From: Candidatus Heimdallarchaeota archaeon
Lineage (GTDB): Archaea > Asgardarchaeota > Heimdallarchaeia > Heimdallarchaeales > Heimdallarchaeaceae
Direction: 5' to 3'
Assembly: GCA_016840095.1 (NCBI GenBank)
Contig: JAEOSZ010000040.1
Location: forward strand, 32,001-96,000
Length of the DNA stretch: 64,000 bases
The position numbers were made by a program, and so were the translations under genes. Under the pieces are notes generated by a model. That model was not told the origin of the DNA and made no database searches. It saw only the letters and a program-made list of their open reading frames with translations. Positions 31,715 to 56,556 of the stretch are shown piece after piece. Position 1 is the stretch's first letter. Each line of letters begins with the position of its first letter.

Positions 31715-32674
31715 ATGAGCAATCCTGAAGAAATTTTTTCTCACACCTCTGAACAAAAGGAAATTATTCAGAATTTCTTGAAACAAGGTAGAAGAGATGT
31801 TCCAACATATTTAGAAGGAGGAGCTGAAGCTAAATATGTGGAAATTGATGATGGAGAACTAAGATATTTCCATCATAAACCTGATAACATTCAAACAAAA
31901 AGACCTGTTGTTTTCATTCCTGGTTATGTGGCTGCACCAATTAGTTGGGTAGACTTTTCACTTCCACTACATGGTATTGGAGAATACTACTATCTGGAAA
32001 CAAGAGAAAAGAAGTCAAGTAAAATTCAAAACAAACGAAAAGCTTCTATGACTGTTGATCAAACTGCAAAGGATATTGGAGTTGCACTTGAAAATTTGGG
32101 AATGAAAAACAAGGATTTTGTATTGTTGGGATCAAGCTATGGATCAACAAATATCTTAGCAGGATTGAGTAAGAAGTATTTTACAGCGCCAACTATTGTG
32201 GTTCATGATCCAATGGTTACATGGGTCAATAAAAATAGAGCTATGGAAATCTTAATGCAAGTTGTACCTAAATTCATTCTAGTTCCAATTAAAATGCCAT
32301 TAGCATATATTGCAACAATGGGGATGGAAAACAAAGCCAATAGGAAAAGGATGCTGGACTTCATGAGAGGTGTAGAACCATGGAAGTTCAAAAGATGTAC
32401 TCTTCAGAACAATAAACTAGATATGTTTAATGATCTCAAAGAAATAGAGGAAGAAGTGTTTTTCTCAACAGGTCCCTTGGATAGATATCATTTTCGATCA
32501 GAATTTTATGGATATGCTAAAGAAATAGCTAAGGGAAGATTCATTTTCATGAATACACCAGACGAAGATAGACAATTGATTACAGGTATAATAGGCAGAG
32601 AATTCATGAAAGTCACCCAAAATGAAGGTATTCCTGAATCACTAAAGCAATTTGAAATAAGGATTGATAGGTAG
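31715..32674 (+). CDS. Alpha/beta-hydrolase fold protein
   Basis: PVVFIPGY, LLGSSYGS nucleophile elbow, GPLDRYH. Confidence 0.75.
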   Translation: MSNPEEIFSHTSEQKEIIQNFLKQGRRDVPTYLEGGAEAKYVEIDDGELRYFHHKPDNIQTKRPVVFIPGYVAAPISWVDFSLPLHGIGEYYYLETREKKSSKIQNKRKASMTVDQTAKDIGVALENLGMKNKDFVLLGSSYGSTNILAGLSKKYFTAPTIVVHDPMVTWVNKNRAMEILMQVVPKFILVPIKMPLAYIATMGMENKANRKRMLDFMRGVEPWKFKRCTLQNNKLDMFNDLKEIEEEVFFSTGPLDRYHFRSEFYGYAKEIAKGRFIFMNTPDEDRQLITGIIGREFMKVTQNEGIPESLKQFEIRIDR

Positions 32675-47539: not shown

Positions 47540-48163
47540 TTGGATAAAATGAATTATGATTTGAAAGACTTTCCAGTGATTATTCTAGCAGCTGGAGATT
47601 CAACCCGAACTGGTATTCCTAAAGGACTTTTAGATTATAATGGAACACCTTTTCTTTCACATCAATTACTTTTGTTACTAGATATAGGTTTTAAAAATCT
47701 GATTGTTGTTTTAGGTAAGGATGCAGAACAGTACAAAGCTGAAATAAGACAATTAAATCACTTAACTGTCTGTATAAATACACAACCAGAGAGAGGACCT
47801 TTTTCATCTATACAATGTGGTCTACAGGAAATAGATGCTGGAGAACAAAATGGTCCTTTCATTTTACCTGCAGATGTTCCTTGTCCTGAAAAAGAAGTAT
47901 GGGTCAAGTTGATAGAAGGTTTGAACTCTTCTGAAACATTAGTAACGATTCCTGAATTTAATGAAAGACGAGGACATCCTGTACTTATTTCTGCGGAATT
48001 CAAAAACTACTTGTTGGAATGTGAATCAGATTCTCGTTTAGACTTTGAAATAAATAAACAAAAAGAATTGCAGAAGGCAAAGATTATATCTGTAAACGAT
48101 AAGAAAATTACACTCAATATTAATACTCTTGAAGATTGGGAAGCTTTTAAGGTGATGAAATGA
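47540..48163 (+). CDS. MocA-like molybdenum cofactor nucleotidyltransferase
   Basis: IILAAGDSTRTGIPKGLL, PADVP, RGHPVLI, NINTLEDW. ATGA overlap with the Mo-hydroxylase gene. Confidence 0.8.
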   Translation: MDKMNYDLKDFPVIILAAGDSTRTGIPKGLLDYNGTPFLSHQLLLLLDIGFKNLIVVLGKDAEQYKAEIRQLNHLTVCINTQPERGPFSSIQCGLQEIDAGEQNGPFILPADVPCPEKEVWVKLIEGLNSSETLVTIPEFNERRGHPVLISAEFKNYLLECESDSRLDFEINKQKELQKAKIISVNDKKITLNINTLEDWEAFKVMK

Positions 48164-50799
48164 ATGTAACTTTTACTCTTAATGGAAAAGAAACAACAGT
48201 CGAATATGAAGAGGGAATGAGTGTTTTAGATGTTCTACGAGAAGTATGTCTGATTAAGAGCTGTAAAGATGGATGCTCAGGTCAAGGTTTCTGTGGAGCA
48301 TGTACAGTTCTCATTAATGGAAAAGCCATGATGTCTTGTAGACAAAAACCCGAATCAATTGAGGGTAAGGAAATTGTCACTATTGAAGGACTTAGGAAAG
48401 AAGAGCAAGAGATAATTTCTAAATCTATGGTTAAAGAAGGTGCAATCCAGTGTGGTTTTTGTACTCCTGGAATTGTAATGAGGATCAAAAGTTTTCTTGA
48501 CCAAAACCCAATTTCAACAAGAGAAGAGAAAGCAAGAGCAATCACAAGCAATTTGTGTAGATGTACTGGTTATCAGAGAATAGTAGATGCAATTGAGACA
48601 GCAGAAAAACACTGGCAGAGTAAAGATACTAATATCTCAGGTCCACCAAGAAGAAATGAGTTCTTTGGTGAACAACATGGATTTTCTAGAGAATTCGAAC
48701 CCAAAAAAGATGGTGTAGGATCAAGTGCTCCCAGATACCGTGGAATAGATATGGCACTAGGTGAGAAGCCATACATAGCAGATATGGAAAAGGAAAATAT
48801 GCTTCATGGAGCTTTACTTTTGAGTAAATATCCACGTGCCAAAGTTCTAAAGATTGATACTTCTGAAGCTGAAAATGGTTGTGGTGTTGTAAGAATATTC
48901 ACTGCACCAGATGTTCCAGGTAAAAGAATAATTGGTCATATAATACCCGATTGGCCAGTGTTTGTTGCAGAAGGAGAAATAACTAGATATGTTGGTGATG
49001 TTCTTGCTATGGTTGTTGCTGATTCGATGCTACACGCAAGAGCCGCTCTAGAGAAGATAAATATAGAATATGAAATCTTGGAACTAGTTGATGATCCTAT
49101 CAAAGCATTAGCAGAAGATGCTATAAAAATCCATGAAAAAGGAAATCTTTTAGGTCATACTTTCTTTGGAAGAGGAGATGTAGATGACGCTCTTAGTAAA
49201 TCAAAATATGTGATTAAACATCAATTCAAGACTCAAAGAATTGAACATGCTTTCATGGAGGTAGAAAGCTCTCTTGCAGTTCCAACTGAAAATGGAATTC
49301 ATGTTTATAGTCAAGGACAAGGAGTGCATGAAGATCAAAGACAGATTGCAGAAGTACTTGGTCTTGAAACTGGAAATGTTATTGTGGAATTAGTAACTAA
49401 TGGAGGAGCTTTTGGTGGTAAGGAGGATCTCAGCTGTCAAGCACAAACAGCTATTGCTTCGTTCTTGTTGAAAAAACCAGTTAAAACAGTATTAACTAGA
49501 GAGCAGTCACTTTTGATGCATGTTAAACGTCATCCTATGACCATGAACTATGAAGTTGGAGCAGATGAAAATGGTAAGCTAACAGCTGTAAGAATGAAAC
49601 TCATTGCAGATACTGGTGCATATGCTTCTGTTGGAGCTAAAGTTGTAGAACGTGCAGCTGGACATTGCTGTGGTCCATACTATGTTCCCAATGTAGATGT
49701 TGACGCAAAAGCTGTCTATACCAACAATCCTGTTTGTGGAGCGATGAGAGGTTTTGGAGTCAATCAAACTTCTTTTGCCATGGAAACTTGTTTGAATTTA
49801 ATTTCTCAAAAAATGAGAGAAGATGGTTTAGAAATAGATGATTTTGATATAAGGGAAAGGAATATTCTCAAGGATGGTCAAAGATTCGCAACAGGACAAA
49901 AAATGACACCAACTGTAGTTGGAATGCAAAAATGCTTAGATGTTGTAAAAGATGCATACAAATCATCTACAGTTCCTACTGGGATAGCATGTGGTATAAA
50001 GAACACTGGTATTGGAAATGGACTTGAAGATACAGGAAGAGTTTTGATAAAGGTTTTAGAAGATGAAACAATTGAGATCTTAACTGGTTTTACAGAAATG
50101 GGTCAGGGGCTTTTTACTATTTTATCACAAGTTGTTTCTGAATTAACAGATATTCCTTTGTCTAAAATGAGCATAAAATCTATTAGTTATCCAAAAACTA
50201 AATGTGGGATGACAACTGCTTCAAGAGCAACAGCTCTAGATTCTATGGCTGCAAAGAAGGCTGCTGAAAAGCTTGTAAAAGCTCTTGAATCTAAAACTCT
50301 CAAAGAGTTAAAAGGACAAGAATTTCATGGAGAGTATATAACCAATTTTACAGTTAAACCTGGAACACCAATCGATAATCCAGTTACACATCTAACTTTC
50401 AGTTATGCTGTTCAAGTTGCTTTTCTTGACGAAAAAGGAAACCTGAAGAAAATGATTGCTGCACATGATGTTGGAAAAGTAATGAATCCTATGGCTTGTG
50501 CTGGTCAGATTGAAGGCGGAATCCATATGGGTTTAGGTCATACTCTTTCTGAAAGTTTTCCATCAACCAAAGGAGTTCCAAATTCTTTGAAAATGAGAGA
50601 TTTGCAGATAGTAAAAGCAAGAGACACTCCAGAAGTAGAAGTTATACTTGTTGAGGTTCCAGAAGATATTGGAGGATTTGGATCTAAAGGAGTAGGAGAG
50701 ATTGGTCTAGTTCCTACAGCTGGAGCAGTTGCAGGTGCCTTGTATAAATTTGATAATAAACCCCGTTTCTCTCTACCATTATTGAGAAAAGAAAAATAA
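48160..50799 (+). CDS. Xanthine dehydrogenase-family Mo-hydroxylase, fused 2x[2Fe-2S] + Mo domains (selenium-dependent XDH-like)
   Basis: KDGCSGQGFCGACTV, QCGFCTPG, NLCRCTGY, GGAFGGKE, AMRGFG, TTASR, GSKGVGE. Confidence 0.88.
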   Translation: MNVTFTLNGKETTVEYEEGMSVLDVLREVCLIKSCKDGCSGQGFCGACTVLINGKAMMSCRQKPESIEGKEIVTIEGLRKEEQEIISKSMVKEGAIQCGFCTPGIVMRIKSFLDQNPISTREEKARAITSNLCRCTGYQRIVDAIETAEKHWQSKDTNISGPPRRNEFFGEQHGFSREFEPKKDGVGSSAPRYRGIDMALGEKPYIADMEKENMLHGALLLSKYPRAKVLKIDTSEAENGCGVVRIFTAPDVPGKRIIGHIIPDWPVFVAEGEITRYVGDVLAMVVADSMLHARAALEKINIEYEILELVDDPIKALAEDAIKIHEKGNLLGHTFFGRGDVDDALSKSKYVIKHQFKTQRIEHAFMEVESSLAVPTENGIHVYSQGQGVHEDQRQIAEVLGLETGNVIVELVTNGGAFGGKEDLSCQAQTAIASFLLKKPVKTVLTREQSLLMHVKRHPMTMNYEVGADENGKLTAVRMKLIADTGAYASVGAKVVERAAGHCCGPYYVPNVDVDAKAVYTNNPVCGAMRGFGVNQTSFAMETCLNLISQKMREDGLEIDDFDIRERNILKDGQRFATGQKMTPTVVGMQKCLDVVKDAYKSSTVPTGIACGIKNTGIGNGLEDTGRVLIKVLEDETIEILTGFTEMGQGLFTILSQVVSELTDIPLSKMSIKSISYPKTKCGMTTASRATALDSMAAKKAAEKLVKALESKTLKELKGQEFHGEYITNFTVKPGTPIDNPVTHLTFSYAVQVAFLDEKGNLKKMIAAHDVGKVMNPMACAGQIEGGIHMGLGHTLSESFPSTKGVPNSLKMRDLQIVKARDTPEVEVILVEVPEDIGGFGSKGVGEIGLVPTAGAVAGALYKFDNKPRFSLPLLRKEK

Positions 50800-50831: not shown

Positions 50832-51788
50832 CTATGGAACAATTCTAGTTCCTGTTTCACCTTTCAAAGCACGACCTATGTTTTCAGGATTGGTGATTAA
50901 AGCTTCTTTGCCACCCTGTTCTAAAAATCCAACAATAGCTTTAATTTTTGGTTCCATAGATCCTTTTGCGAAGTGAGTTCCTTCATCAAGATATTTCTTT
51001 GCTTCTGCAACTGTCATTTGGTCTATATCAACTTGATTTGGTTTACCAAAATTCAAAGCAACTTTTTCAACAGCAGTTGAAATCAATAGCATATCAGCAT
51101 CAATCTTATTAGCTAGGAATGCTGATGCAAAATCCTTGTCAATAACAGCTGCAGTTCCAATGATTCCATCATCTGTTTGAATAACAGGAATACCACCACC
51201 ACCTACAGTAATTGTGATTACACCTGCAGCAATCAAAGCTTTAACAGCTTCCAATTCCATTATCTCTACTGGTAATGGGGAAGGTACTACTCTACGCCAA
51301 CCACGACCTGAATCTTCAACAACATTCCACCCTAATGATTCCTTTCTTTGTTCTGCTTCATCTGCTTCCATGAAAGTTCCTATAGGTTTAGTAGGTTTTA
51401 GAAAAGCAGGATCAGTAGGATCTACTCTGACTTGAGTAACCACTGTAGTTACTGGTTTGACTATTCCTCTTATTTTGAGCTCGTTCTGGATATTTTGCTG
51501 CAATGCATATCCTATAGCACCTTGACTATCAGCTCCACAAACATCAAGAGGTAATTCATGCATACCTTCAACCTTATGAGCAATTTCACTTCGGCGTAGA
51601 ATGAATCCAACTTGAGGTCCATTACCATGACCTATAGCAATATCCCATCCTGCTTCAATCATATCTACCATGTGATATGCAGTTTCTTTGGCAGCTTTGT
51701 ATTGGTCTTGTACAGTTTGATGTTGCTTATCTTTTATTAGTGAATTACCACCTATAGCAACAACTGCTACTTTCTTTCCTTCAGACAT
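50832..51788 (-). CDS. arcC: Carbamate kinase
   Basis: VVAIGGNSL, HGNGPQVG, PTKPIG, EDSGRGWRRVVPSP, AVIDKD, GSMEPK. ATG 51788 preferred over 51797. Confidence 0.93.
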   Translation of the reverse strand: MSEGKKVAVVAIGGNSLIKDKQHQTVQDQYKAAKETAYHMVDMIEAGWDIAIGHGNGPQVGFILRRSEIAHKVEGMHELPLDVCGADSQGAIGYALQQNIQNELKIRGIVKPVTTVVTQVRVDPTDPAFLKPTKPIGTFMEADEAEQRKESLGWNVVEDSGRGWRRVVPSPLPVEIMELEAVKALIAAGVITITVGGGGIPVIQTDDGIIGTAAVIDKDFASAFLANKIDADMLLISTAVEKVALNFGKPNQVDIDQMTVAEAKKYLDEGTHFAKGSMEPKIKAIVGFLEQGGKEALITNPENIGRALKGETGTRIVP

Positions 51789-51893
51789 CGGTATCACATT
51801 CCTTCAATTATGTAGTTTAAATATTTCGTTTTAGGACTAACTGAGTTAGGGGTTACTAGAAATTCTTATAATTTCAAAATTAAACCTTACTAG

Positions 51894-52754
51894 TTGAATA
51901 GAATGTTACATGAATTAGAAGAAAATGAGTTCTACCAAGTTAAAAAACTATTTTCCAGTTTAGCTGAACATCAATTAATGTTGGTTTCAGTGTTAGAAGG
52001 AAACCAATATGGTAGGATATTTGTTGATGATAAAGAAAATCCTGGTTCTGGTTTTGTTCATCTAGGAAAAGTTTTTTTCTTTTTTGCGGGATCTTCAAAA
52101 AACAATGAATTCAATTGTGATTTGAAAGAAATTCTCGGAAATGATATATTTCCAAATTATAAGGAAGACTACAAATATATCTTTATGTTCTATGAACAAG
52201 AATGGAGGGATGCAATCAAAGATATATTTGACGGAAAAGTATCGACTGGAGAGGAAGTATACCACACTTTAAGTAGAAATGAAAGGAAAGAATGGAATTC
52301 TACTTTATCACAAGATTTCAGCATTAAAAGAGTGAATAGAGAATTTATTGAAAACAAATCTAATGAAATTCCAGAAGAAATCAGAATTGAATGGTGGCTT
52401 TCAGATAATAAGAACTCGTTAGATGAATTTTATAATAGAAGATTTGCATTTGCAGTAGTTTATCAAGAGAAACTTGTTGTTGGTTTCTGTTATTGCAGTT
52501 ATATCTCAAATAACTTGAGTAGGTGTGATCTTGGGATAACAACAAAATCAGATTTTCAAAGAAAAGGATTAGGGAAGAATCTTTTATTTCATACATTAGA
52601 ACACTGTTGGGAATTAGGAGTCAACACAGTTGAATGGCATACTACAGAAGATAATATTGCAAGTATTAAGTTGGCAGAATCTGCTGGTTTCAAATTTAAT
52701 AGAAAATTACCCATGTGTTTTGGAAACTGGGAGTTAAGTAGACCTAATTCATAA
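51894..52754 (+). CDS. GNAT-family acetyltransferase
   Basis: DLGITTKSDFQRKGLG acetyl-CoA motif; NIASIKLAESAGF. Confidence 0.85.
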   Translation: MNRMLHELEENEFYQVKKLFSSLAEHQLMLVSVLEGNQYGRIFVDDKENPGSGFVHLGKVFFFFAGSSKNNEFNCDLKEILGNDIFPNYKEDYKYIFMFYEQEWRDAIKDIFDGKVSTGEEVYHTLSRNERKEWNSTLSQDFSIKRVNREFIENKSNEIPEEIRIEWWLSDNKNSLDEFYNRRFAFAVVYQEKLVVGFCYCSYISNNLSRCDLGITTKSDFQRKGLGKNLLFHTLEHCWELGVNTVEWHTTEDNIASIKLAESAGFKFNRKLPMCFGNWELSRPNS

Positions 52755-52778
52755 AAGTAAGATTGTGTGATTACTCAT

Positions 52779-52958
52779 TTAATTTAAATGACTATTAAAA
52801 CATCTTCTACATTTGTAACAAAAAGTATCATCTGAGTTTAATTTAATTCCACATACAGGACATTTTTTTTCGTTCATCCTTCTTGTTCTATTGAAAGTGT
52901 CAGTCTTGTAGTTAAGGTTCTGTTCTTTTCTAATCTTTGAAAGATATTTTCTTGCCAA
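52779..52958 (-). CDS. Small zinc-ribbon protein (59 aa), not in the ORF track
   Basis: GAGGAG SD-like sequence, then TTG: MARKYLSKIRKEQNLNYKTDTFNRTRRMNEKKCPVCGIKLNSDDTFCYKCRRCFNSHLN. Confidence 0.7.
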   Translation of the reverse strand: MARKYLSKIRKEQNLNYKTDTFNRTRRMNEKKCPVCGIKLNSDDTFCYKCRRCFNSHLN

Positions 52959-53088
52959 GTAGTTCTCCTCTTTTCAAATTAAAAAATTTGATTCAACTAT
53001 TTCCATTTCAATTATAGAAAAAATACTAATAAATCACTAGATTTTACAAAAATTCTTTTGAAAAATTAAATCTAGAAAAAGAGTTATT

Positions 53089-53106
53089 GGAGAAATTTAA
53101 TTCTCC
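53089..53106 (-). terminator. Short hairpin immediately after the YgeW-like stop codon
   Basis: ggagaa-atttaa-ttctcc inverted repeat, followed on the minus strand by CTCTTTTT. Confidence 0.35.
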
Positions 53107-54086
53107 TATTTCATTGTTAGAGCCATAACTGCTTTTTGAGCATGCATCCTGTTTTCAGCTTGATCAAAAACAACTGATTGAGGACCATCCATAACTTCAC
53201 TTGTGACTTCAACATCACGATCAGCAGGTAATGGGTGCATGTAAATAGCATCTTTGTGAGCTAATGCCATCTTCTTTGAATCAGTTATCCAATCCTTGTA
53301 CTTGTCTTGGATTTTCTTACCTTCTTCTGGATCATTAGTTGTTAGTAAAGGTCCCCAAGATTTTGCATAAACTATTTCTGCATCTTTAAAACCCTCTTCC
53401 ATGCTGTCGACTACTTCGAACTTACTACCAAACTTATCAGCTTGTTCTTGAGCTTGTTTCATGATTTCAGGCATCAATTTGAATTCAGGAGGATGTGCTA
53501 AAGTAACATCTAATCCAAATCTAGGCATCTGTAGAATTAATGATTGTGGAACAGAAATTGGTTTCAAGTATGATGAAGCATAAGCCCATGAAACCACCAT
53601 CTTTTTGCCTTTCAAATCACGACCCTTTTTCTCAATGATTGTCATGATATCAGCTAAGCACTGATGAGGATGATAAACATCACACTGCATATTCAATACT
53701 GGTGAGCGAGATGCAGATGCTACATGATTGATGTACTTGTTACCTATACCCCAATCACAGTGTCTAATTGCAATTCCATCAAAATATCTGCCAAGGATTT
53801 CTCCTAGTTCTTTTTCAGTGTCTCCATGAGAAACTTGAGTAGTACGACTCTCCATAAACGCAGCGTGACCTCCTAGCTGTGCCATACCAGCTTCAAATGA
53901 GGCTCGAGTACGTGTGCTGGAGAAGAAGAAAAGCATACAAAGGGTCTTATCTAGAAGAAGAGCATGTCTTTCACCTAGAGCTCTTCTTTTCTTAAGATCC
54001 CAAGCAACATCTAAGATGGTTTCGACTTCTTCTTTGGTGAAATCTAAGTCACCGATTAAATCTCGACCACGTAAATCAGATTGCAT
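53106..54086 (-). CDS. YgeW-like (knotted) carbamoyltransferase
   Basis: SSTRT, HPHQ, WAYASSYLKPISVPQS (YgeW-type loop), YAKSWG, HPLPADR, QAENRMH. GGGTGA SD before ATG 54086. Confidence 0.82.
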   Translation of the reverse strand: MQSDLRGRDLIGDLDFTKEEVETILDVAWDLKKRRALGERHALLLDKTLCMLFFFSSTRTRASFEAGMAQLGGHAAFMESRTTQVSHGDTEKELGEILGRYFDGIAIRHCDWGIGNKYINHVASASRSPVLNMQCDVYHPHQCLADIMTIIEKKGRDLKGKKMVVSWAYASSYLKPISVPQSLILQMPRFGLDVTLAHPPEFKLMPEIMKQAQEQADKFGSKFEVVDSMEEGFKDAEIVYAKSWGPLLTTNDPEEGKKIQDKYKDWITDSKKMALAHKDAIYMHPLPADRDVEVTSEVMDGPQSVVFDQAENRMHAQKAVMALTMK

Positions 54087-54093
54087 TAAGTCT

Positions 54094-55050
54094 TCACCCT
54101 TCTTCTGCACCTAAAACTAGTGCTATTAGAGCCATTCTCATTACAACGCCGTAAAATCCTTCTTGCCAATAACGAGCCCAACGTGTTTGATCCACATCAG
54201 GTGGTATATCATCCATACGTGGTAGAGAGTGAAGTAATATAGCATCAGATTTTGCTTTGGTTTCAAGTAGTTCTTTAGTGATTTGGAATTCTGGTGGAGT
54301 TAAAGCAACATCACCATCTCTTTCATCACGAGATTTGGTGTAATCAGGTTGGACAACAGGTTCAACTAGAATGACATCAGCATCTGCAATAACCTCTCGA
54401 ACATCATCAGCTTCAGTGAAGTTCAAACCATTACGTCTGAAATCTTCCTTATATTCTTCTGGCATTGCCATATCTTTTGGTGCGACAAAAGTGATTGGAC
54501 AATCAAACTGAGTAAGTGCATGACCTAGAGAATGCATTGTTCTCATTCTCATATCTCCGACAGCTACCCATTTTAATCCGTCAATCTTTCCTTTTTCTTT
54601 AAGAACTGTATAGAGATCAGTGAGGATCTGAGTAGGATGTTCTCCCCAGCCGTCGCCTCCATTAATTATTGGAATACTTACCCATTTAGATGCTTCTTGT
54701 GGTGCACCTTTTTGGAAGTGTCGCATAACAATAACATCTCCATAATTCTCAAGCATTTTGAAAGTATCCTTGATTGTTTCTTGGTAAAAATCACCTGCAC
54801 GTGTCATTTTAGCATCGGAGAATCCAGTTACTTTACCACCTAATCTTAGCATAGCTGATTCATGAGCTAAACGAGTTCTTGTTGATGGTTGATAAAATGC
54901 AGTAACCATTATCTTATCTTTCAACAAATCAACATTTTTTCTATTGCGAGCTATAGGTTCTAATTTTCTAGCAACCTCAAATATACGCTCATATTCATGA
55001 CGTTCAAAGTCTCTTAAAGAGATAATATCTCGTCCTTTAAAACTTCTCAT
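54094..55050 (-). CDS. Divergent aspartate-carbamoyltransferase-like enzyme, substrate uncertain
   Basis: PSTRT, MRH, INGGDGWGEHPTQ, HSLPR are present. The aspartate-specific motifs (SxxKGES, RxQxER) are replaced. Confidence 0.8.
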   Translation of the reverse strand: MRSFKGRDIISLRDFERHEYERIFEVARKLEPIARNRKNVDLLKDKIMVTAFYQPSTRTRLAHESAMLRLGGKVTGFSDAKMTRAGDFYQETIKDTFKMLENYGDVIVMRHFQKGAPQEASKWVSIPIINGGDGWGEHPTQILTDLYTVLKEKGKIDGLKWVAVGDMRMRTMHSLGHALTQFDCPITFVAPKDMAMPEEYKEDFRRNGLNFTEADDVREVIADADVILVEPVVQPDYTKSRDERDGDVALTPPEFQITKELLETKAKSDAILLHSLPRMDDIPPDVDQTRWARYWQEGFYGVVMRMALIALVLGAEEG

Positions 55051-55227
55051 AATTAATTCACCTTAATATTCCAGACTAGTTTCATCTAACATAGTCTTGT
55101 TGCTCTGCCAATACTAGTTTTTGTTTATAAACCTTCTTTTTAGCAACTGAAGATGAGTTTTTGAAGTCTCTCTGTGAGTTTTCAAGAAGAGATAACTTTT
55201 ATTTATGGAGTAGAATATGGTCAAGTA

Positions 55228-56556
55228 ATGAAAGACAATTTCAAGTATGATTTAGGTTTGGTAAACGGCAAAGTGTACATAAATGGTAGTTTCGTTGCTG
55301 TGGATATCTATATCAAGGATCAAGTCATTTCAGAAATTGTCCCTCAAGGAACAGAACTTCCTTGTGAGAATATAGTCAGTTGTATAAGCAAATTAATTAT
55401 GCCTGGATTTATTGATCCACACGTTCATATCAATCTTGACTTGGGAGAATTTAGATCAGCTGATGATTATGAAAGTGCTTCCAAAGCTGCAGCATTTGGT
55501 GGAATAACCACTTTTATAGATTTTTTAGACCCTATAATAAATGTTGATGAGTTTGAAAATAGATTTGCTCAAAAAATGAAGGAAGCTAAAGATTCCTATA
55601 TCGATTACTCTTTTCACACAACAGTTGGTAATTTTGACGATGATGTAGATAAATTAGTAGCTATTTCTAGAGCCAATGGTATTCCATCAATTAAGATGTT
55701 TACAACTTATTCAGAGAGTAACCGAAAAATATCAAAAGAAAAACTTCAGGAATTCATGAAAAACTCAAGTAAAACAAGTACATTGATTCTTGTACATGCT
55801 GAAAACGATTACATGATATTGAATGCAGAAGTTGATGATACTTTAGAGCAATATGAAAGATCCAGACCAGCAGAGGCAGAAATACTTGAAATTGAGAAAT
55901 TAGTAAGAATTGTGAAGGATATACCAGGAAAGCTCTATATCGTTCATGTAACATGCGGTTCTTCAATAAACCTCATCAAAGAAGAGTGCAAAGAACTAAT
56001 CGGAAAGAACATATTCATAGAAAGTTGTCCTCAATATTTCCATTTAACTAAGGATTTATTTGAACAAGATAATGGTAATCTATTTCTCCTTGCACCACCT
56101 TTGCGATCAGCTGATGAACAACAAAAACTCAAAGAAAACATTTCCTCAATCCAAACAATAGGAACTGATCACTGTCCTTTTACTAAAGAAGAAAAAATGA
56201 GGTACAAAGTTGCAAGTAAAATACCTAAAGGACTAGGAAGTTTGGAGTACAGTTTTTCTCTTATGTATCACCTGTTTGGAGAAGAAATTATCGATAAGTT
56301 TACAATAAATCCCGCAAAGATTCATAACCTCTATCCAAAGAAAGGTGTAATTCAAAAGGATTCAGATGCTGATTTTGTTATTTTTAGTCCAGATAAAACA
56401 CTGATGATTGATTCAGGCCATTCCAGAACAGATTATAGTCCCTATGAAGATATGCTAATTAATGGTTTAATTGAATCCACAGTTCGAAGAGGAGAATTTA
56501 TAGTAAAAAACAGGAAACTAGTAGCAAAAACCAATGGACAATTTATCGAACGTTGA
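55228..56556 (+). CDS. Cyclic amidohydrolase (dihydropyrimidinase/hydantoinase/allantoinase-like)
   Basis: PGFIDPHVH, AAAFGGITT, SIKMF, VHAEN, YIVHV, ESCPQY, PPLR, GTDHCPF, NPAKI. ATG 55228 preferred over GTG 55174. Confidence 0.85.
   Translation: MKDNFKYDLGLVNGKVYINGSFVAVDIYIKDQVISEIVPQGTELPCENIVSCISKLIMPGFIDPHVHINLDLGEFRSADDYESASKAAAFGGITTFIDFLDPIINVDEFENRFAQKMKEAKDSYIDYSFHTTVGNFDDDVDKLVAISRANGIPSIKMFTTYSESNRKISKEKLQEFMKNSSKTSTLILVHAENDYMILNAEVDDTLEQYERSRPAEAEILEIEKLVRIVKDIPGKLYIVHVTCGSSINLIKEECKELIGKNIFIESCPQYFHLTKDLFEQDNGNLFLLAPPLRSADEQQKLKENISSIQTIGTDHCPFTKEEKMRYKVASKIPKGLGSLEYSFSLMYHLFGEEIIDKFTINPAKIHNLYPKKGVIQKDSDADFVIFSPDKTLMIDSGHSRTDYSPYEDMLINGLIESTVRRGEFIVKNRKLVAKTNGQFIER

Follow-up and report, generated by a model that had tools for sequence, protein, structure and literature searches.

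A conserved pair of non-canonical carbamoyltransferases in Heimdall archaea and anaerobic bacteria, and its possible role in the reductive urate pathway

The stretch of DNA analyzed here, referred to as the window, comprises 64,000 nucleotides (positions 32,001 to 96,000 of contig JAEOSZ010000040.1, our contig C11) of a Heimdallarchaeota metagenome-assembled genome (MAG; GCA_016840095.1) of 3.44 Mb that is 89% complete with 7.8% contamination. Two adjacent open reading frames (ORFs) on the minus strand, together spanning 53106–55050 of the window, encode proteins with two Pfam transcarbamylase domains each, denoted TC1 and TC2. They lie close to a carbamate kinase gene, and TC1 is a candidate for an enzyme that would take the place of the hydrolase YgeY in the reductive degradation of urate.

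54094–55050, minus strand: TC1, a pseudo-aspartate carbamoyltransferase (pseudo-ATCase), that is, a PyrB-like carbamoyltransferase, 318 amino acids; assigned from the ORF, its motifs, the TIGR00670 match and its own clade
53106–54086, minus strand: TC2, a compact YgeW-type carbamoyltransferase, 326 amino acids from the ATG; 35% identity to YgeW

Only in 2025 was the reductive urate pathway solved; in the form known so far, one of the purine's two ureido groups is conserved as ATP. The lower (2,8-dioxopurine) module of Escherichia coli and Clostridium sporogenes consists of YgeW, YgeY, YqeA, HyuA and YgeX; two groups reported in 2025 that YgeW phosphorolyzes one ureido group of 2,3-diureidopropionate and YgeY hydrolyzes the other, the order of the groups being disputed between them. 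E. coli YgeW and YqeA together make ATP from the diureide (bioRxiv 10.1101/2025.04.24.650524).

Signature motifs and relatives of the two proteins

The translation of TC1 contains the motifs QPSTRTR, GEHPTQ, LHSLPRM, TRAGDFYQET and EPVVQPDY. It shares 37% identity with E. coli PyrB, and the solved structure nearest to it is that of the P. abyssi ATCase (1ML4, 250 bits); the fold and the carbamoyl-phosphate site are those of PyrB. When TC1 and 80 orthologues were aligned with E. coli PyrB using MAFFT, the STRT and HPTQ motifs were found to be kept in all 81 TC1 sequences and all carbamoyl-phosphate ligands were invariant, the unchanged positions (PyrB numbering) being Ser52–Thr55, Arg105, His134, Gln137, Arg167, Leu267 and Pro268. 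An earlier sequence-only reading of this DNA had described TC1 as PyrB-like with STRT, HPTQ and HSLPR, and the alignment bears this out. Judged by its complete and invariant carbamoyl-phosphate site, TC1 is probably catalytically competent.

The residues that distinguish PyrB are replaced with equal regularity: Ser80 by Arg, Lys83 by Asp, Lys84 by Tyr and Pro266 by Ser in 81 of 81 sequences. The 80s-loop KGE with its Lys84, which together with RxQxER marks the aspartate site (PMC4581275), is absent, FYQE standing in its place, and the PyrB motif HP[LG]P is HSLP throughout. The proposed replacement of KGES by AGDFYQET therefore stands, and that of RxQxER by PVVQPDY holds in two alignments, HMMER against the P. 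abyssi ATCase and L-INS-i with 107 sequences, in which PVV falls under RVQ; MAFFT with E. coli PyrB only makes EPVVQPDY an insertion and sets TKSRDER against TRVQKER. The register around residues 229–234 depends on the alignment, and in no register does TC1 keep the Arg229/Gln231 pair of the aspartate motif.

In a quick maximum-likelihood tree the TC1 family is set apart from the PyrB clade (Shimodaira–Hasegawa-like approximate likelihood ratio test support, 96), and in a broader surrounding clade, sampled as representatives of 50%-identity clusters, the loop T-R-A-G-D-x-Y-x-E is common and RxQxER missing, distinct from canonical ATCases. The NCBIfam equivalog for aspartate carbamoyltransferase, TIGR00670, nevertheless accepts TC1 with 264.5 bits (cut-off 236.95); across the family the scores lie around that cut-off, at 235–264 bits, as against 309–371 bits for the canonical PyrBs of the same genomes. 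Since the cut-off admits this paralogue, public records name TC1 proteins aspartate carbamoyltransferase.

Pseudo-ATCases were named by Barba et al. in 2013 (PMC4016543), whose supplement labels HTLP as Rubrobacter, HPLA as the marine group and HSLP as Nocardioides, the main text being ambiguous on this point. Their subgroup 2, "ATC_III_HSLP", was represented by A1SH59 of Nocardioides sp. JS614, from one genome and with no function proposed. The A1SH59 alignment row, with GDGWGEHPTQ, GDMRM-RTMHS, IYMEPVVQADYTD and LHSLPRM, carries the TC1 signature, and the other HSLP row differs; STRT, HPTQ, HSLP and a V-x-P in place of RxQ (V-Q-P, inside EPVVQPDY) are all found in TC1, in agreement with the motifs of the paper's Table 1. 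The shared segments make TC1 a member of this orphan HSLP subgroup. The contexts agree as well, the A1SH59 gene adjoining a ygeW homologue, xdhABC and hyuA, and TC1 lying among ygeW-type, xdh and hydantoinase genes. In contrast to the single genome of A1SH59, the TC1 family extends to at least 145 species genomes, archaea included, and brings a carbamate kinase with it, and it shows a displacement pattern with respect to YgeY.

The one characterized member of the pseudo-ATCase clade is the ureidoglycine carbamoyltransferase (UGTCase) Rxyl_2847 of Rubrobacter xylanophilus, which phosphorolyzes one ureido group of allantoate, a diureide derived from purines, next to a carbamate kinase (PMC4016543). 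Unlike TC1, it has the HTLP motif, lies on a branch of the published tree separate from that of A1SH59, works in an oxidative pathway alongside uricase and allantoinase, and lacks a YgeW-type partner. HSLP in TC1 does fit the UGTCase pattern H[ST]LP, but the G-x-[SC] at the RxQ position is absent, and there is no uricase-type context in the window.

TC2 begins 7 bp downstream of TC1 (TC1 stop at 54094–54096, TC2 ATG from 54086), the spacing given in the sequence-only reading; an alternative GTG start at 54110 would overlap TC1, and orthologues align from the ATG. That reading also called TC2 YgeW-like, and E. coli YgeW is indeed its closest characterized relative (35% identity). The two have in common the segments WAYxxSYxKPxSVPQ, FGxDVTLAHP and SMEExFKDAxIVYxKSWxP, a proline-rich loop (WAYSPSYGKPLSVPQ in YgeW, WAYASSYLKPISVPQ in TC2) and the segment KSWAP, KSWGP in TC2; TC2 orthologues also share the genomic partnership with true YgeY and a carbamate kinase. 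Both curated YgeW hidden Markov models (HMMs) nevertheless score TC2 below threshold (TIGR03316, 197.7 bits, cut-off 500; NF005538, 204.4, cut-off 453), and of the traits published for YgeW, namely HP[TMF]Q, H[AVC]LP, extra terminal helices and an extended 240s loop (PMC4016543, PMC4581275), TC2 has HPHQ and HPLP for the two motifs and lacks the terminal extensions and the inserts around the 240s loop, being 70 residues shorter (326 versus 396).

Nor does TC2 fit the ornithine or acetylornithine carbamoyltransferases (OTC, AOTC): it scores 257 against a cut-off of 306 for the former and 251 against 288 for the latter, reaches no NCBIfam cut-off at all, and has SWGPLL and HPLP in place of the OTC motifs DxxxSMG and HCLP. 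Its identity to the canonical OTC of its own genome (contig C32, with SMG and HCLP) is 32%, and the solved structures closest to it are the P. furiosus OTCase, then AOTCase and YgeW. On these comparisons TC2 is best described as a trimmed YgeW equivalent, though not a true YgeW by HMM score.

Conservation of the module and its relation to YgeY and pyrimidine synthesis

At least 145 species genomes contain a relative of TC1, and the 80 best were studied. Of the 71 loci with enough flanking sequence, 68 have TC2 immediately downstream of TC1, and a 69th is broken only by an assembly gap; the median distance between the two genes is about 100 nt, and the gene after TC2 is usually a carbamate kinase. 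The conserved trio is hosted by Heimdall archaea, Chloroflexota, Neomarinimicrobiota and others, beside genes that belong to the reductive urate pathway: xanthine dehydrogenase (XDH), SsnA-like, YgfK or hydantoinase. Heimdall-type clusters have the order seen in the window, hydantoinase–TC1–TC2–kinase–XDH. The Anaerolineales type consists of 8-oxoguanine deaminase, adenine deaminase, a GntR regulator, the trio and a nucleoside ATP-binding cassette (ABC) transporter. In the Neomarinimicrobiota type a same-strand run leads from a transporter through adenine deaminase, XDH, an SsnA-like gene, TC1, TC2 and the kinase to ThrC-like and CysK-like pyridoxal phosphate (PLP) enzymes, the XDH iron–sulfur and FAD subunits and a true YgfK (928 bits, cut-off 835). 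The recurrence of cluster types with XDH, SsnA-like and YgfK genes connects the trio with reductive urate degradation. The module resembles that of E. coli in its YgeW-, YqeA- and HyuA-type genes and its XDH, SsnA-type and YgfK or UacX-type setting; it differs in having ThrC-like and CysK-like PLP enzymes in place of YgeX and, in the window's genome, in lacking YgeY and YgeX and having an ATCase-type transferase in YgeY's place.

Two further points concern these clusters. An "adenine-deaminase-like" gene considered as a substitute for HyuA was rejected, being a true adenine deaminase (633 bits, cut-off 472.5). Separately, npdG, for an NADPH-dependent F420 reductase, follows the two PLP genes in loci L045, L047 and L080 (Anaerolineae, Caldilineae) and scores 194 bits versus 150 in the near-identical locus L023; its position fits a published remark that ring reduction in Chloroflexota clusters may be F420-based.

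In the quick tree (loci L025–L044) the Heimdall TC1 forms a fully supported clade with 11 Anaerolineales sequences, nested within the Chloroflexota diversity. The two groups share 88–92% amino-acid identity in TC1 and are similarly close in TC2 and the kinase, which points to movement of the three-gene module by inter-domain transfer; the genes flanking the trio differ between them.

If TC1 took over the function of YgeY, the distributions of the two genes might be linked, and the sequence-only reading had proposed to look for an anti-correlation. In an even sample of 301 Chloroflexota genomes (YgeY scored above its cut-off, TC2 orthologues at 60% identity or more), TC1 is present in 18, TC2 in 41 and YgeY in 49; the 18 TC1 genomes all have TC2, save one case at a contig end. 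An unpublished genome, G171, falls only in a TC2 group of 52–57% identity and is outside all counts. YgeY is encoded in 24 of the 24 genomes with TC2 only, as against 9 of the 18 with TC1 (Fisher p = 1.1e-4), so that YgeY is dispensable only where TC1 is present. The anti-correlation is conditional and not strict, YgeY adjoining TC1 in 15 of the 80 loci. Constant co-occurrence was not seen either: across several phyla 20 of 27 TC1 genomes lack YgeY, namely the window's own and 19 of 26 others.

Gene order repeats the pattern. Twenty TC1-less loci were fetched, and none has a TC1-like gene near TC2; those with a GntR regulator mostly read GntR–YgeY–TC2–kinase, and most of the remaining ones have YgeY beside TC2 or the kinase. 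The orders GntR–YgeY–TC2–kinase, GntR–YgeY–TC1–TC2–kinase and GntR–TC1–TC2–kinase are collinear, and TC1 thus stands in the slot of YgeY. The shared operon slot and the conditional absence of YgeY both support the earlier suggestion that TC1 substitutes for this enzyme. The trios that are accompanied by YgeY indicate that the replacement is not always complete; YgeY may serve there as a hydrolytic bypass or act on different substrates.

The link to pyrimidine synthesis, which the PyrB resemblance would suggest, is not borne out. The window's genome has three transcarbamylase genes, TC1, TC2 and the canonical OTC, and no canonical pyrB, pyrI, pyrE or carB was found in the 89%-complete MAG, a pyrF-like hit being only weak. 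A separate pyrB, proposed as a check in the sequence-only reading, was thus not found here and is present elsewhere: 17 of the 26 other TC1 genomes, one Heimdall MAG among them, encode a canonical PyrB (309–371 bits) besides TC1. A pyrE match accompanies it in 17 of 17 cases, and pyrE is absent from 8 of the 9 TC1 genomes without canonical PyrB, the ninth holding a pyrE fragment at a contig end. Over the 27 genomes, then, pyrimidine synthesis tracks canonical PyrB and not TC1. TC1 also differs from PyrB in having no PyrI and no link to pyr genes; it is not the housekeeping PyrB, and the biosynthetic reading was rejected.

A PyrD-type dihydroorotate dehydrogenase (DHODH) is encoded on contig C163 of the same MAG (L021:8132–9118; 309 bits versus 270). 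Its presence without pyrB, pyrI, pyrE and carB could reflect incompleteness of the MAG, auxotrophy or a catabolic use of the enzyme.

Neighboring genes and the host genome

Around the pair, the window holds the following features.

50832–51797, minus strand: carbamate kinase, 321 amino acids (TIGR00746, 372 versus 358 bits; NF009007, 402 versus 266)
55174–56556, plus strand: hydantoinase/dihydropyrimidinase-family amidohydrolase, 460 amino acids (TIGR02033, 286 bits, under cut-off)
48160–50799, plus strand: selenium-dependent molybdenum hydroxylase of the xanthine dehydrogenase family, 879 amino acids (TIGR03311, 870 versus 830 bits)
47540–48163, plus strand: MocA/YgfJ-like molybdenum cofactor cytidylyltransferase, 207 amino acids (TIGR03310, 112 bits, under cut-off)
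51894–52754, plus strand: ORF of 286 amino acids with a weak GNAT (RimI-like) match, on the opposite strand between TC2 and the carbamate kinase

With E. coli YqeA the carbamate kinase shares 53% identity. The amidohydrolase, at 29% identity to E. coli HyuA (E = 1e-60), is likely the HyuA counterpart, and a hydantoinase adjoins TC1 in 10 of 10 Heimdall-type loci. The XDH-family gene is kept after the kinase in Heimdall loci, and the MocA-like gene follows it in five. The closest TC1 relatives belong to Heimdallarchaeota MAGs (up to 97% identity), and the cluster order is found in ten independent Heimdall-type MAG loci, which argues that it is no binning artefact. In the window an insert of about 1.3 kb (51798–53105) parts TC2 from the kinase; the spacing is 3–12 bp in several Heimdall relatives, the 286-residue ORF has no homologue among the other 80 loci, and it is probably not part of the module.

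Other candidate pathway genes lie elsewhere in the MAG. Contig C145 (L020:6074–14232) carries an operon-like run of an SsnA-like amidohydrolase (321–349 bits, under cut-off), a UacX-like DHODH-family reductase with a C-terminal ferredoxin-like region, as in C. difficile UacX, a ThrC-like PLP enzyme, xdhA, xdhB and xdhC. The PLP enzyme, extended by some 70 residues at its N-terminus, is orthologous to the one encoded after the kinase in bacterial clusters. No YgeX scored above cut-off in the window's genome, and this protein may stand in for it.

YgeY likewise has no match above cut-off in the genome. Its best M20 protein, on contig C119 (137 bits), is unsupported as a hidden YgeY, the neighbors being unrelated to purines. 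A CysK-like PLP orthologue lies 4 kb from that gene: it is a CysK/CBS-like protein of 485 amino acids (L107:13380–14837), which shares 63% identity with the second of the PLP enzymes in Anaerolineae clusters and is encoded remote from purine genes.

A proposed second phosphorolytic step and its alternatives

We propose that TC1 and TC2 are two separate catabolic carbamoyltransferases of the lower reductive urate pathway. TC2 would remove one ureido group of 2,3-diureidopropionate by phosphorolysis, and TC1 would phosphorolyze the remaining one, whose removal falls in E. coli and Clostridium to the M20 hydrolase YgeY. The two molecules of carbamoyl phosphate would pass, with ADP, to the adjacent carbamate kinase, yielding two ATP per purine instead of one, and the 2,3-diaminopropionate left over would probably be taken by the ThrC-like PLP enzyme encoded elsewhere in the genome. 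We think it reasonably probable that TC1 replaces YgeY by phosphorolysis and thereby doubles the carbamoyl phosphate and ATP obtained, the substrates, step order and yield being predicted.

As TC1 is not found working without TC2, its substrate is most simply the product of TC2. The retention of Arg167, the loss of the cationic β-carboxylate ligands and the gain of Asp83 and Tyr84 would fit an N-α-carbamoyl substrate with an amine side chain; more tentatively, TC1 may take a 2-ureido (N-α-carbamoyl) compound, with Arg167 as the putative ligand of the α-carboxylate. We lean only slightly towards the fuller statement that TC1 represents a new specificity, a carbamoyltransferase (phosphorylase) for mono-ureido 2,3-diaminopropionate that would have displaced YgeY across hundreds of species of environmental anaerobes and, through transfer, also in Heimdall archaea.

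Several observations weigh against this proposal. In 15 of the 80 loci, and in 9 of the 18 TC1 genomes from Chloroflexota, YgeY accompanies TC1 and TC2, often adjacently, which implies that YgeY and TC1 cannot simply stand in for each other and that their compounds may differ. The association between them counts genomes and not independent events, and whole operons move horizontally. The activity of the TC1 subgroup is read from sequence and gene context, and the invariant Arg and Glu of TKSRDER could still bind an anionic group. YgeW phosphorolysis is reported to be thermodynamically less favorable than hydrolysis (PMC12507026), and the published studies disagree on the ureido group that YgeW attacks (PMC12990295), so that any substrate named for TC1 is tentative. 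Finally, the completeness and contamination of the MAG make absences from it weak evidence.

The side-by-side occurrence of YgeY, TC1 and TC2 in those 15 loci suggests non-redundant roles, and with them the alternative that survives best: TC1 would act within the same purine module on another substrate, such as the exocyclic ureido group of ureidomethyl-hydantoin, a stereoisomer or an ureide of another nucleobase, as an added branch. Clusters with 8-oxoguanine, adenine and cytosine deaminase-type genes and nucleoside ABC transporters indicate that several substrates enter, and the pseudo-ATCase clade is large and diverse. Set against this are the loss of YgeY only where TC1 is present, the position of TC1 in YgeY's slot and the Neomarinimicrobiota gene run, which contains no other candidate for the second ureido cleavage; we regard the alternative as possible but rather improbable.

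The adjacency of the TC1 and TC2 genes and their unusually high conservation across phyla (74–97% and 67–97% identity), together with the sharing of active sites between neighboring subunits in transcarbamylases (PMC4581275), could also be taken to mean that the two form one heteromeric YgeW equivalent, TC1 being structural or regulatory and another enzyme removing the second ureido group. Of the 41 Chloroflexota genomes with TC2 orthologues, however, 24 have no TC1, so TC2 works alone and an obligate heteromer is unlikely; the carbamoyl-phosphate site of TC1 is complete, and no heteromeric member of the family was met in the literature consulted. We give this arrangement little credence.

Least credible is TC1 as a real aspartate carbamoyltransferase, or a catabolic one acting on carbamoyl-aspartate through a variant aspartate site, for which its TIGR00670 match, its status as the only PyrB-like gene of this MAG and of 8 other TC1 genomes, and the PyrD-type gene may be cited, but against which stand the lack of Lys84 and of the Arg229/Gln231 pair in every alignment, the missing PyrI, carB and pyrE, the canonical PyrB alongside TC1 in 17 of 26 genomes, and the examined loci, where TC1 is never beside pyr genes and has TC2 and the carbamate kinase as neighbors.

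Phosphorolysis of both ureido groups by a TC1–TC2 pair had been put forward as an undescribed pathway variant. Literature searches found no published account of a two-transferase form; the pairing of a pseudo-ATCase gene with a ygeW homologue has been known since 2013, in one genome (PMC4016543).

Should TC1 have the proposed activity, engineered probiotics that degrade urate could draw on it as an alternative enzyme. The assignment would also correct a systematic mis-annotation as aspartate carbamoyltransferase, by which pyrimidine auxotrophs can pass for prototrophs when metabolism is reconstructed, and provide a function and a substrate for the PyrB-annotated pseudo-ATCase subgroup, an orphan since 2013. 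The substrate-level ATP obtained from the ureido groups of purines would be doubled, and a variant yielding two ATP would matter for the energy-starved sediment anaerobes that carry it, among the Anaerolineae, the Neomarinimicrobiota and the Heimdall archaea.

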